64,000 nt of DNA from a virus (IMGVR_UViG_3300013101_000007:1-64000), one strand, 5' to 3'. Shown: positions 2,464 through 61,111, counted from the stretch's first letter. The notes: generated by a model from the letters alone, not told the origin. Program-made: numbers and translations.

Positions 2464-4293
2464 ATGCCAGTAACGATCAAACAAAAATCAGATAACTCCA
2501 CCGGTAAGGCTTTAGGAGCGCAATCCTCTATAACCCTTATAAAATCAAAGAAAGTATCTAAAGCTGAAAATGATGTTCTTCAATCCAATGCTTTATTAAC
2601 GGATGATCTTTTTGAACTTGATTACTTCGATATAAAATCAAATGCCAAAGCCGTAGTATTAAGACCTCCATTTGTACCAACACTCTTAGCTTCCTTGTGT
2701 AAAGAGAATAATGCACTTGAACAGTGCGTAGCGGCTATGGAAGTGAACATTGATGGCACGGGATACGAGGTGGGCTCATCTGAAGCGGGTGAAGAAGAAA
2801 CTGAGGCAGAGAAAGTACAAGCCCAAGGCATAATGGATTTCTTTGATGAAATTTTCCCAGCTAAATCATTCATTACTGTTCGTAGAGAACTTCGCAGAGA
2901 CCAAGAATCAACCGGCAACTCATACATGGAGGTTCTTCGTTCTATTGCAGGTGAAATTGTTTTTGCCAAGGCACTAGAATCTGTAACTATGCGAATAGTA
3001 AAATTAGATGACCCTGTACCTGTAAAGGTAACAATAGAAAGATTTGGTTCAGAACAAACCGTAACTCTTATAAAGCGAGAAAGAAGGTATGTTCAGAAAA
3101 TAGGGGATAAAAGCATATTCTTTAAAGAATTTAATGCAAGTCGTGACTTAAATAAATGGACGGGTGATTGGGCAGAACAAGGACAAAGATTAGCCATTGA
3201 AGATAGAGCTACTGAAATAATACATTTCTTTCCTATAAAAGATGTATTAAGTCCTTACGGCTTACCTAGATGGATTAATCAAATACCTTCCATTTTGGGT
3301 TCAAGGAAAGCCGAAGAATTAAATTTAGATTTTTTTAATGCCGGTGGATTACCTCCAGCAATTATTGCTATACAAGGTGGGGAATTAACCGAGGAAGTAA
3401 GAAAGCAATTAAACACTTATGTTTCTGGAAAAGGAGCATCCAAACATAGAGCGGCTGTAATTGAAATTCAATCAAGTGGTGGCTCATTAGATTCTGCTGG
3501 TAATGTCAGAATGACAGTTGAGCGGTTTGGTGCTGAACGTCAGCAAGATTCAATGTTTGAGAATTATGATAGTAAGTGCGAGAAAAGGGTAAGGTCAAGT
3601 TTTAGACTACCACCTATGTTCGTGGGTAAGGCTGATGATTATTCTTTTGCTACGGCCTTTGCATCGTACACAGTGGCAGAAGCTCAAGTGTTTCAACCAG
3701 AACGTAGTGAGTTTGATGAAGTAATGAACAACACTATTATGAAGGAGATTGCACCGGAATTTATGTTCAGGTCTTTACCTTTGGCTGTTCGTGATGCTAC
3801 CCAGCAATTAAAAGGGATTGAGCTATCAAAAGATTCACTTGATAATGAGGGGTTCGTTAAAGCTATTAACGAAGTAACTAACATGAATCTGAAAATACCT
3901 GAAGGTACGGGAAAACAACCGGCAACTAATGCCCCTGTGGATACTCCTGAAGATGAAGGGGGTGAATCTGATACCATAACCGCATTAGAACCTAAAGCAA
4001 CCCCTGTTGAGCCTACAAAGGTGTCTAAGATTGACCCTATGGTTATGATTGAAATGGCAACCCAATGGGCTGATTACAGTGCGGGGGTTACTATCAAAGT
4101 AGACCCAGAACACTTATACACTGTTATAAAGTCTATGCCAGACGATCAAAGGCAGTTATTTGATGCTTATGTTGCTATTAAATTAATGTCTGGTTTTGAC
4201 CATGACCCAGAAGGGGCTATTGAATTAATGGGCGCGGCTACAGATATATTAATGACTAAAAATGAGTGCTGTACACATGGCGATAAAGAATGA
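2464..4293 (+). CDS. portal protein (PBSX/XkdE-like)
   Basis: GNSYMEVLR, EIIHF, SPYGLPRW, FFNAGGLP and FRLPPMFVG portal motifs; likely start is ATG 2464 (MPVTIKQK) after GGGA. Confidence 0.9.
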   Translation: MPVTIKQKSDNSTGKALGAQSSITLIKSKKVSKAENDVLQSNALLTDDLFELDYFDIKSNAKAVVLRPPFVPTLLASLCKENNALEQCVAAMEVNIDGTGYEVGSSEAGEEETEAEKVQAQGIMDFFDEIFPAKSFITVRRELRRDQESTGNSYMEVLRSIAGEIVFAKALESVTMRIVKLDDPVPVKVTIERFGSEQTVTLIKRERRYVQKIGDKSIFFKEFNASRDLNKWTGDWAEQGQRLAIEDRATEIIHFFPIKDVLSPYGLPRWINQIPSILGSRKAEELNLDFFNAGGLPPAIIAIQGGELTEEVRKQLNTYVSGKGASKHRAAVIEIQSSGGSLDSAGNVRMTVERFGAERQQDSMFENYDSKCEKRVRSSFRLPPMFVGKADDYSFATAFASYTVAEAQVFQPERSEFDEVMNNTIMKEIAPEFMFRSLPLAVRDATQQLKGIELSKDSLDNEGFVKAINEVTNMNLKIPEGTGKQPATNAPVDTPEDEGGESDTITALEPKATPVEPTKVSKIDPMVMIEMATQWADYSAGVTIKVDPEHLYTVIKSMPDDQRQLFDAYVAIKLMSGFDHDPEGAIELMGAATDILMTKNECCTHGDKE

Positions 4294-5293
4294 GGCTTTT
4301 TTGGTTCTGGAGTTCTCACTAGCGCAAAGACTGGACACCGCAACCAAAAAAGAATACCTACCTAAAATAAGAAGGGCAGCTAGTGATGCCATAAAAGGTG
4401 ACTTTGTTTCTGCACATGAAGAAGTAAACAGCATTAATCTTACTGAAGCCGTGGAATCAGAACGTAAGTTTATTGATTTAGTAGGGATGCAAGCTATTCT
4501 ATTTGGGGCACGGGATTTCCACTCTGCAAAAAATACCAGTTTTGCGGGAAACCCTCCACCGGTGGAATTAAAAAATGCTACCGATACTATAACAAAGATG
4601 CTTATTCAGAATACCACTGAAGCAGTAAAGTCCAATGCTCATAACTTATTAGATATTGAACAAGTAGCTCAAAATGAATCTGAGATTGTTATTCAGAAAG
4701 CAACCACAAAAGGATTTGTACGCAATTTTGTATCAAGTGTGGGAAAAAAAGGTAGGGGCTTTGTTGATATAGGCTCAAGTTTACACACATCCAGATTAGC
4801 CTCATGGGGATTTACTACTGAAGCAGAATTATTAGGACAAACATCTTTCATTGTATCTGAAGTATTGGATGGTAGGACTTGTCCTGTTTGTAATCTTATG
4901 AATGGGAAAGTGTTTCCAGTTAATACGGCTAAACTTAGATTAGAAAGTCAATTAAGCATTAATGACCCACTTGAATTAAAAGCGGTGGCAAAATGGCCTA
5001 GCCAAACAAAGTCAGGTATAGCAAAATTAGAGAGTATGTCAGACAGTGAGTTGATAAGTGCCGGTTGGGATACACCGCCTTATCATCCAAGATGTAGAGG
5101 TGTATTAAGAAGGACTAATAAAATAGCACCACTTACGATACCAGAAACCGTACTACCTTTAGCCGTGGAGGAAATTATAACCCCACTTGTTGTAGAAGCC
5201 GCCAGTTTGGGTGGTGTTGCCAGTGTTGCCAGTGTTGCCATTATTACTGAATCAACATTACCACCACCAGTATCAGAAGAAAATGAAAATTAA
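4262..5293 (+). CDS. head morphogenesis protein (SPP1 gp7/Mu F-like)
   Basis: DGRTCPVC...PPYHPRCR signature; follows the portal gene. Confidence 0.85.
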   Translation: MSAVHMAIKNEAFLVLEFSLAQRLDTATKKEYLPKIRRAASDAIKGDFVSAHEEVNSINLTEAVESERKFIDLVGMQAILFGARDFHSAKNTSFAGNPPPVELKNATDTITKMLIQNTTEAVKSNAHNLLDIEQVAQNESEIVIQKATTKGFVRNFVSSVGKKGRGFVDIGSSLHTSRLASWGFTTEAELLGQTSFIVSEVLDGRTCPVCNLMNGKVFPVNTAKLRLESQLSINDPLELKAVAKWPSQTKSGIAKLESMSDSELISAGWDTPPYHPRCRGVLRRTNKIAPLTIPETVLPLAVEEIITPLVVEAASLGGVASVASVAIITESTLPPPVSEENEN

Positions 5294-5352
5294 TTTTAAA
5301 AAACTTAGTGCAATTGATTGCAATTACTAAAAAGAGGTAGTAACTTTACAAC

Positions 5353-59700: not shown

Positions 59701-60500
59701 TGATTGATTCAAGAGTAAAAATAATTGTGGCAACTACTGGAGACAGGCCGAAGTTATTATTCGCTTGTTTAAAATCCTTATTACAGTACATGCCAGAATA
59801 CCCAATAATTGTGGTGGCTCAAGAAGTGCCATCAATCGTTGTCAGTACATTAAAGAGGCTAAAAAGAAACAACCCTGAGTGGAGTATAGAGTTTTTGTGG
59901 CATGAGAAAAAGATAGGGCCTCACTCTGCTAAAGTATCGGTATTGGAGAAATATCCTGATACTGAGTTATGGGTATCAATGGATGACGATATGGAGGTAC
60001 TACCAGAGACCGACTACAAGACCCCCTTAGAATACGTTTTAACTGAGTCGGTTGGGATAGTAAGCTGTAATTGGGTACAAACAGAAACCATGATTGCTAA
60101 GAAGAAGTCCAAGATGGAAGAGGCGTATAAACCTCAAAAGTTAATATACACCGGTGGGGGGTTTATATTTGCTAAGAAGATTGCAGATTTGATAGTTAAG
60201 CTACCTGATTTGCCTTATGTATTTGATGATTGCTTATGGGCGGCTGTGGCTTATGCTGAAGGGTATTTGAATTACAGATACATGGGGAGTGTCTGTATAC
60301 ACCGTATTTGCTCAAAAGGTGGCAGACGTAGTTTTTTAATGAGAGAGGATTCAGCCTTACCACCTGAAGGATTACTCATAATGAACCCGTGCAAGAAACA
60401 AACTTATCCTTACAAGACTTCAAATTACTACATGCCACGGGCTAATGAGATACATGCAGATGCAGAAGCCAAACACGCTATAAATAAGAAGGGTGGATAA
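59700..60500 (+). CDS. GT-A fold (GT2-like) glycosyltransferase
   Basis: IIVATTGDRP..L, SMDDD (DxD), GGGF, FDDCLW, H. Confidence 0.7.
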   Translation: MIDSRVKIIVATTGDRPKLLFACLKSLLQYMPEYPIIVVAQEVPSIVVSTLKRLKRNNPEWSIEFLWHEKKIGPHSAKVSVLEKYPDTELWVSMDDDMEVLPETDYKTPLEYVLTESVGIVSCNWVQTETMIAKKKSKMEEAYKPQKLIYTGGGFIFAKKIADLIVKLPDLPYVFDDCLWAAVAYAEGYLNYRYMGSVCIHRICSKGGRRSFLMREDSALPPEGLLIMNPCKKQTYPYKTSNYYMPRANEIHADAEAKHAINKKGG

Positions 60501-60502
60501 TT

Positions 60503-61111
60503 ATGCCTGTAACTATAGTACAAAAACCAAAGGCCAAAAAGAATAAACATAATGATTCTAGGATACCGTGGCCTGAGATAAAACAACAGTTTATTGAAAC
60601 CAATTTGGAAGGGAGAATGACCCTGACCCAAGTAGCTGAAGCGAATAATATTGTTGTTGGTACTTTGGCTAATAAAGCTGCGGCTGATAGGTGGTATGAT
60701 GAATTGCGGGAAAAGAAATTAGAAATAACCCGTGAAGTAGAAAAAGCAATGGCGGTTGATACCAAGAAAGTCATTACTCAATTAAAAGCCAAAAATCTTA
60801 ATGATGAATTGGCAGTAAGGCAGAGGCATTTAGGGTTATCAAGAAAGGCATTATTGATAGCTAAAGCCAGACTGGATACTTTAGATTCTAAAAAAATGAC
60901 GGTACGGGAAACCTTAGACCTTCTTAAATTTGGAGTAGAGCAGGAACGTAGGGCATTAGGTATGGTAGATGAAACTACTTTAATATTACAGGATGCTCCT
61001 AACAGTAATGTTGAATTATCTTATGGTAAGGTTGATTCAGTTATTGGTACATTGATTGACTTAATGAAAGGGGATGATGGCGTATATGAAGAAGTCAAAC
61101 AGGGAAATTAA
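60503..61111 (+). CDS. terS: terminase small subunit
   Basis: WPEIKQQF..TLTQVAEANNI..TL..AAADRW HTH and ERRALG; directly upstream of terL. Confidence 0.75.
   Translation: MPVTIVQKPKAKKNKHNDSRIPWPEIKQQFIETNLEGRMTLTQVAEANNIVVGTLANKAAADRWYDELREKKLEITREVEKAMAVDTKKVITQLKAKNLNDELAVRQRHLGLSRKALLIAKARLDTLDSKKMTVRETLDLLKFGVEQERRALGMVDETTLILQDAPNSNVELSYGKVDSVIGTLIDLMKGDDGVYEEVKQGN

Follow-up and report, generated by a model that had tools for sequence, protein, structure and literature searches.

Unrelated genes with a common N-terminal tip

The DNA considered here, a 64,000-nucleotide stretch of a virus (IMGVR_UViG_3300013101_000007:1-64000), hereafter the window, is the first 64 kb of a linear contig of 79.7 kb, G000, in which six genes for unrelated proteins start with M-P-V-(T/K)-(I/V) followed by a lysine-rich stretch. 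Five of them are in the window, and the sixth, at 72461, is in the remainder of the contig, all of which was included in the scan for this tip. The contig is 38% GC, all its genes are on the plus strand, and its modules run from structural genes through those for replication and recombination to nucleotide and DNA-modification genes and then to TerS-TerL. A megablast comparison of 41 kb of the window with a cultured phage collection gave no match, and no near-identical phage is present there.

The first of the six is the portal gene (2464-4293, phrog_12), whose tip MPVTIKQK is encoded by 2464..2487. The next three are in the replication module, the order of which is AAA ATPase, O/DnaD-like initiator, DnaB, primase, a protein like single-stranded-DNA-binding protein (SSB), SF2 helicase, MerR-like protein, RecA, Cas4-like exonuclease and RuvC. 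They specify a protein of 158 amino acids (aa) between the DnaB helicase and the primase (41970-42446, tip MPVTITKK at 41970..41993), whose family is here termed F2, a MerR-type helix-turn-helix (HTH) protein (45934-46419, MerR_1 PF13411, tip MPVKVKKI at 45934..45957) and a 163-aa protein, of family F5, upstream of RecA (46420-46911, tip MPVTIKKK at 46420..46443). Directly upstream of TerL is the gene for a 202-aa putative TerS (60503-61111, tip MPVTIVQK at 60503..60526), a protein that had no family hit and is labelled TerS by position alone. The sixth gene, outside the window at 72461-72838 of the contig, encodes a 125-aa stand-alone DNA-ligase Ia domain protein (PF22745) starting MPVTIVRKKK; this is the NAD+-binding N-terminal domain, and the ligase catalytic domain is not adjacent. 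A weaker tip, MPLKIIKK (49133..49156), starts the Cas4-like exonuclease (49133-50050), and an IbrB/ParB-like protein (58981-59700) has a copy of the tip, KKKGVTIVRKGKK, at its C-terminus (59659..59697). Two other products of the replication module are relevant below. One is the gp32-like SSB (family F3, 43751..44434), which starts MGFLKKGK, ends with EGEYEDDV in an acidic tail and has a CPxC zinc site. The other, at the head of the module, is a classical Cdc48/p97-like AAA ATPase (36938..38188, PF00004), phage-encoded and single-ring, that is conserved through the clade described below and in cultured phages of the SIO-2, DLP_5 and PaMx31 types.

The five strong instances listed by the sequence-only reading of the window (2464, 41970, 45934, 46420 and 60503) are all present as described, each opening a long frame, and the bodies of the carriers are unrelated, with all pairwise BLAST E values above 0.4. 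Across the whole contig ATGCCNGTN occurs at 13 plus-strand sites. All six of those with frames of at least 125 codons read MPV[TK][IV] plus basic residues, and the remaining seven are dead frames of 3-16 codons. Six such starts compare with 0.02 expected per genome from position-specific N-terminal composition (binomial P ~2e-11), and so the enrichment is well beyond what chance would give. Beyond the carriers, none of the remaining ~127 gene calls of the contig fits the strict tip pattern, and in its proteome the hexamer pattern is confined to protein ends, with five occurrences at or right behind the start methionine and one, that of IbrB, C-terminal.

Ribosome-binding sites and orthologues back the tip starts. 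For the portal, the closest relative, G001 (89.8 kb, with an SF2 helicase 86% identical), has MPVTI at the first start codon of the frame, with a GAGG ribosome-binding site, while in the window the in-frame ATGs upstream of the portal start sit at the edges of a 14-bp palindrome; the database protein for this portal begins 9 codons too early. Two of the lesser instances first pointed out are also real, the exonuclease start being kept in G001 as MPLKITKK and the strand that ends IbrB (GVTIVRKGKK) being kept there as well. The scaffold gene at 5936, taken to carry a weak version, is not a convincing case: its start would be a TTG with an ATG five codons downstream, and the motif is present in no orthologue.

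Two further sequences resemble the tip. A 63-aa open reading frame at 47982-48173 reads MSDTIEMSVTIVRE, and its second methionine (48000) would give the tip-like start MSVTIVRE. IbrA (57825-59042) has an internal in-frame MPIKITNSTS at 58092 that is identical in G001; it probably belongs to the fold and does not mark an internal start.

Selection on the peptide

The sequence-only reading had pointed to synonymous variation of the tip codons and, from it, to selection on the peptide rather than the RNA, and comparison with G001 bears out both. That phage keeps the tip on seven of seven orthologues, among them a TerS orthologue of 50-52% identity that starts MPIKIIKK, and in codons 2-5 of the seven orthologue pairs there are 13 identical codons, 10 synonymous changes and five conservative replacements (V/I, T/K, T/I). 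MPVTI survives in the portal pair despite four synonymous changes over four codons. Codon choice within tips follows genome usage, and the tip is preserved in relatives of 41-65% GC. The synonymous turnover and the conservation across GC contents rule out a RegA-like RNA operator.

Distribution in related phages

The tag was at first considered phage-specific. Instead it is clade-wide and old, being ancestral in the F2, F5 and SSB families. The comparison was with eight related genomes (41-65% GC) and with the replication modules of four cultured relatives, Vibrio phage SIO-2, Stenotrophomonas phage DLP_5, Rhodobacter phage RcZahn and Rhizobium phage RHph_TM16, the family membership of whose proteins was checked by hidden Markov model. 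Judged by sequence, the tag marks a large clade of 80-100 kb siphophages that includes SIO-2, DLP_5 and RcZahn.

When orthologue N-termini are compiled across these phages, F2 retains the motif in every genome where F2 was found (MPVVLKTK, MAVTIIKK, MALKFKTK, MAIKLKTT, MGLNISLG, MGVKMGDQ, MAFILKSP and MAIKFKTT), with body identity of 18-33%. The last of these tips is from RcZahn gp54 (L133 2310-2897), whose annotated TTG start is probably an error; at locus position 2403 a GTG with a strong ribosome-binding site, AAGGAGG, gives the tip. F5 carries the tip in nearly every genome where F5 was found, the copy in G002 (MPVPDNIT) being deviant. Word-based homologue searches with F2 and F5 yielded only 2-4 hits, and a related-loci scan for F2 yielded three loci, but an exhaustive profile search showed the F5 family to be large (2,912 clusters); among the 151 representatives listed, 86 start M-[AGPTS]-[VIL]-[KTSNVQ]-[IFVLM]-K-K-K.

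Other carriers are more restricted. RecA has the tip in DLP_5, RcZahn and RHph_TM16, and a pre-DnaB protein has it in G004 and G006. The exonuclease has it in G000 and G001 and, in looser form, in G005, where the exonuclease start MALKWMNK resembles that of the same phage's SSB, MALKWMKK. The MerR-like protein, the ligase-Ia protein and TerS have it only in G000 and G001, and distant MerR orthologues are without it. For the portal it is present in 26 of the 49 closest homologues and in none of 70 more distant ones. The spread of the tag to portal, TerS, MerR, exonuclease and ligase-Ia protein is particular to this lineage.

The genes for the MerR-like protein and F5 abut or overlap, as a conserved pair, in G002, G004, G005, G009, DLP_5 and SIO-2, with RecA next where checked (G000 and DLP_5), and the MerR-like protein has a conserved WY-x-x-N...RYxxDPxYR segment ahead of its HTH.

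Tip, linker and body

The consensus from the N-termini compiled is methionine, a small residue (P/G/A/S/T), an aliphatic one, K/T/N/Q/S, another aliphatic one and then usually two or three lysines, with the general form M-[PGAST]-[VIL]-[KTNQS]-[IVLFM]-x-K-K preceding a predicted disordered linker. That the motif leads into a disordered-looking linker had been proposed from the window, and the fraction of order-promoting residues at positions 9-35 is 0.22 in carriers versus 0.36 in other proteins (P=2e-4). Linkers differ in charge, being acidic in F5 of G001 and G004 and in DLP_5 RecA, so that the conserved element is the small-aliphatic-x-aliphatic core and not a polycation.

In the F5 family the first eight residues and the last ~60 are conserved and the intervening 20-100 residues are not. 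The AF2 model of F5 is of low confidence for residues 1-~70 (blocks 49-70), and most of 71-160 has a predicted local distance difference test (pLDDT) value above 90. The body model had no Foldseek hit in the PDB at E<=0.001, its best VIA-wide match (Z 6.3) was to unrelated beta-lactamase folds and within the noise range, and in BFVD it matched uncharacterised phage proteins only; a Pfam search of 90 F5 members found nothing.

RecA and SSB are where the tip has been gained as an N-terminal extension with a linker of its own. RecA of G000 is without the tip, while that of DLP_5 has MGVKLPGAK and a linker of ~35 aa, acidic and proline-rich, as an N-terminal extension, that of RHph_TM16 has the extension MAKLVFKPKGGGG with a GGGG spacer, and that of RcZahn starts MAVKVKSKTN. 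In G004 and G006 the SSB has an additional tip and linker ahead of its ancestral N-terminus, and in G002 and G003 it has looser basic N-terminal extensions.

At the C-terminus of IbrB, G001 has GVTIKRKGKK while the ~20 preceding residues diverge. This copy is suggestive of a tag that can be used at either terminus, and is put no more strongly because the two genomes in support are closely related; it argues against a mechanism that strictly needs a processed N-terminus.

The lysine codons of two of the tips form runs of eight (45943-45957) and seven (49142-49153) adenines. Runs of 7-8 adenines are of a length at which both ribosomes and polymerases are known to slip.

Concerted flavours within genomes

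The non-homologous carriers of each phage share a flavour of the tip, as is appropriate for a shared tag. The flavour is PVTI in the phage of the window, GVKM/GVKL in DLP_5, G[LV][NQ]I in SIO-2, A[IL]KL in G004, GLKI and ALKW in G005 and PV.[IL] in G006. When tips were shuffled among genomes within each family, the mean expectation was 28 within-genome tip identities, versus 54 observed, and none of 100,000 permutations reached 54 (P<1e-5). Each of positions 2-5 contributes, every family pair is significant (P 1e-4 to 2e-3) and the concert holds without G000. The tips of the SSB co-vary with the others (F3-F5, P=0.002; F2-F3, P=0.002). Such concert would be expected if the tips co-evolve with a single reader, specific to the phage or to the host.

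A proposed docking peptide and its candidate partner

The best interpretation, though a tentative one with the odds against it, is that the tip docks, on its tether, with a single partner common to all carriers, for which the gp32-like SSB is the leading candidate. The tip would be a short linear docking peptide displayed at the extreme N-terminus of unrelated DNA-acting proteins, with a flexible linker behind it, and carriers of the same flavour within a phage would bind, and compete for, a single partner that co-evolves with it. By analogy with the N-domain of T4 gp32, that partner may be the phage's own gp32-like SSB, so that the SSB would be both carrier and candidate reader and the other carriers would have a common handle for joining SSB-coated replicating or recombining DNA. 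Those others would be the helicase-flanking protein, the RecA-adjacent protein, RecA itself in some phages, the exonuclease, the ligase-Ia domain, the MerR regulator, TerS and the portal. This set resembles that of the partners of T4 gp32, which include helicase accessory proteins, the recombinase and its neighbor, and a nuclease.

Among 12 genomes about half have the tip pattern at the SSB N-terminus (MALKWMKK, MAFKFLKT, MGVSWLKT, MGVNIGVK, MALSFAKK), and it is looser in the rest. In the SSB-like family there are a zinc site (CPxC/His) and, at the C-terminus, an acidic tail whose conserved end is Tyr-x3-Leu/Val, features that appear to fit a gp32-type SSB; phrog_14578 (SSB) matches five of eight members, Atlas gives a lead to gp32 (PF08804, in 18% of a neighboring cluster), and the depositor's note on the RcZahn protein is 'T4 gp32-like'. 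In T4 gp32 residues 3-7 (KRKST) of the basic N-domain are essential, and the domain docks on the core of the adjacent protein to give cooperativity (PMC12893549). In T4 the short basic peptide opens gp32; the putative SSB family here opens with a tip-like sequence or a looser basic one. The LAST motif of gp32, (Lys/Arg)3(Ser/Thr)2, is itself present in a few tips (KKKST in G001 F5 and KKKTKTT in G001 F2), though not in most. However, the gp32 peptide is known on gp32 alone, in a largely helical domain (PMC12893549), and the tip is on up to seven unrelated proteins with a small-aliphatic-x-aliphatic core and long disordered linkers.

Several points weigh on the other side. A profile search of PDB sequences with the SSB-like family found no gp32, and the proposed homology depends on the PHROG annotation, the Atlas lead and the depositor's note. 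With the gp32 N-domain described as largely helical and its key residues as KRKST (PMC12893549), it is relevant that most tips are without (K/R)3(S/T)2 and look more beta-strand-like. The SSB of G000 starts MGFLKKGK and so departs from MPVTI at positions 2-5, and a portal has no obvious reason to bind SSB. The concerted flavours might come from host-specific constraints and not from a phage-encoded reader, and K-I at codons 4-5, the commonest state in F5, is a motif that raises translation yield in E. coli. Atlas and PDB sequences give no support to the 283-aa conserved protein at 51346 as a possible clamp.

The logic of the proposal is that of replisome hub peptides such as the bacterial SSB C-terminal tip, the acidic C-tails of T7 gp2.5 and gp4 and clamp-binding motifs, where unrelated DNA-transaction proteins compete for one partner by means of one tethered terminal peptide. 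The likeness is in logic only, since those peptides are of QL[SD]LF type or acidic tails with an aromatic residue at the end, and are mostly C-terminal, whereas the tips are basic and aliphatic. With the bacterial SSB C-terminus it is also the hub that carries the peptide, while in the case of the phage tip the clients carry it. A bolder version, and a distinctly doubtful one, is that the clade runs its DNA transactions via one portable handle, an SSB self-association peptide that was copied, by convergence or N-terminal extension, onto other proteins. Recombinase, nuclease, helicase accessories, ligase domain and regulator, and in this lineage TerS and portal, would then plug into SSB-coated DNA at the same co-evolving site; if true, this would turn round the usual scheme, where the peptide is on the hub.

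The T4 capsid-targeting sequence is another common N-terminal leader on unrelated phage proteins. It marks packaged proteins and is cut by the head protease, in contrast to the situation here where carriers are mostly replication and recombination proteins; no protease-site pattern was seen behind the tip in the N-termini listed, though no scan was aimed at such a pattern.

Other explanations

The tip could instead be a translational ramp, with codons 2-8 maximizing early elongation and yield and the peptide being without a role in the finished protein, though this is improbable. In E. coli, lysine or asparagine followed by isoleucine or tyrosine at codons 3-4 or 4-5 gave the top reporter yields regardless of synonymous codon choice (PMC6920384). 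Among the 86 F5 tips, position 4 is K in 39, N in 7, T in 22 and S in 9, and position 5 is I in 52. The K|N-I|Y motif of Verma et al. 2019 is like the tip in being amino-acid-dependent and tied to the N-terminus, and the tip, the C-terminal copy in IbrB excepted, is limited to the first codons, where an A-rich lysine run lowers mRNA structure. But the E. coli motif does nothing once the protein is made, would work without a linker, and gives no reason to expect flavours or a C-terminal copy. The flavour of the phage in question is T-I rather than K/N-I (of its seven tips four are T-I and three K-I or K-V), its most highly expressed genes, such as those for capsid and tail, are without the tip, and the runs of 7-8 adenines in the tips at 45934 and 49133 are slippage-prone rather than optimal. 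A ramp also leaves unexplained the small residue at position 2 and the aliphatic one at position 3, the flexible linkers that accompany gains (GGGG; an acidic stretch of ~35 aa), the phage-specific flavours common to non-homologous genes and the conserved C-terminal copy.

A little less probable again is that the reader is the AAA ATPase (36938-38188), which would recognize the tip and its long linker as a recognition or initiation tag for remodeling, extracting or recycling oligomeric DNA-bound proteins, the proposed substrates being SSB and RecA filaments, helicase accessory proteins and the rings of TerS and portal. The enzyme belongs to an unfoldase clade (PF00004), its best PDB sequence matches being NVL, Cdc48, VAT and p97 (E ~1e-23 to 1e-25), and AAA+ unfoldases engage substrates via a terminal tag followed by 20-100 disordered residues. 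It never bears the tip itself, and the divergence of its ~200-aa N-domain among phages (27-45% identity) could explain phage-specific flavours. It is present in all eight of the fetched relatives and in cultured clade members, and its counts in cultured records are close to those of F5 (Vibrio 33 versus 32, Pseudomonas 13 versus 12, Stenotrophomonas 4 versus 4). Agreement is less close for Rhizobium and Rhodobacter, however, the ATPase is also present in mycobacteriophages, and because the whole replication module is inherited together the co-occurrence is not independent evidence. Neither structure nor sequence links the N-domain to the tip, and an unfoldase tag on portal and SSB, which are needed in bulk, would require that they be protected. 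A complex prediction with full-length ATPase and F5 residues 1-45, run without controls, gave no answer (score 0.00) and is evidence neither way.

It is unlikely that the tip is a degron for a host AAA+ protease, of the ClpXP N-motif-1 type, that times the breakdown of proteins for replication, recombination and packaging or clears unassembled subunits. The N-motif-1 pattern of Flynn et al. 2003 is reportedly polar-T/hydrophobic-hydrophobic-basic-hydrophobic, and it is fitted by K-type tips (AVKI, PVKV, PLKI, GVKM, AIKL) but not by those of T/N/Q/S type (PVTI, GLNI, GVQI, PVSI). The Dps N-terminus, STAKLVKSK, resembles the tips. N-motif-1 degrons such as those of lambda O and Dps are likewise N-terminal, unstructured and of hydrophobic-hydrophobic-basic-hydrophobic form, and lambda O, too, is a phage replication protein; its tag is a well-established N-motif-1 degron, bound within the ClpX channel (PMC12723719). 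The unstructured linker also suits engagement by a protease. On the other hand, ClpX is highly conserved, so that flavours differing from phage to phage would not be expected, the phage requires SSB, RecA and portal to be stable and plentiful, and the C-terminal copy would not act as an N-motif. We know of no degrons that co-vary within a phage.

The likelihood that the tip is just a non-specific polyanion-binding arm that concentrates proteins on phage DNA, by contact with DNA or membrane, is small. Many DNA-binding proteins have lysine-rich tails and most carriers act on DNA, but what is conserved is the M-small-aliphatic-x-aliphatic core and not charge, some flavours have only one or two lysines (MGVKMGDQ and MGVKLPGA in DLP_5), the linkers listed above for F5 of G001 and G004 and for DLP_5 RecA are acidic, and DNA binding needs no strict terminal placement.

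Artefact is scarcely credible: two DLP_5 tips identical at 17 of 20 nucleotides make some DNA-level copying possible, but the G000 tips differ from each other at synonymous sites (CCA/CCT/CCG, GTA/GTC/GTT, ACG/ACC/ACT) and so are not recent copies of 5′ DNA, and chance (P ~2e-11), hidden paralogy of carriers (bodies without similarity) and mis-called starts (ribosome-binding sites and orthologue support) are, as far as sequence can tell, largely refuted.

A repeated palindrome and other features

A 14-bp palindrome, TGCAATCAATTGCA, occurs at 19 sites with at most one mismatch, compared with 0.08 expected, and the sites are mostly intergenic. One is at 2438-2451, 12 nt upstream of the portal start, and the 18 others include those at 5309, 17071, 36301, 41871, 46913, 59645 and 62953; one of these is in-frame just before the C-terminal tip copy of IbrB. 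An association between tip and palindrome was considered and rejected. Two sites adjoin tips, at the portal start and the IbrB tail, but the other tips have no palindrome nearby and so there is no consistent link.

In two of the relatives TerL homologues are in long open frames with split matches (G006 78817-81393, 944 aa; G008 61881-63998, 774 aa), and in G004 (63264-64901) there is a TAA inside the TerL match. These odd frames may reflect inserted elements or assembly errors.

Significance

Terminal hub peptides organize the replisomes of bacteria, T4 and T7, and none is known to have been described for the present clade, which is large and mostly from marine and soil sources. No paper mentioning the present motif turned up, in searches that were not aimed at the motif itself. 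It is a real, protein-level and portable terminal tag of this clade, and its anatomy and co-variation suggest a docking function. The tag corrects gene starts, as with RcZahn gp54 and the G000 portal, and it flags two uncharacterised families, F2 and F5, as likely replisome or recombination accessory factors. The phage-specific flavours are a natural specificity-swap experiment, and one 8-residue peptide could serve as bait for the partner central to replication, recombination and possibly packaging in the cultured phages SIO-2, DLP_5 and RcZahn.

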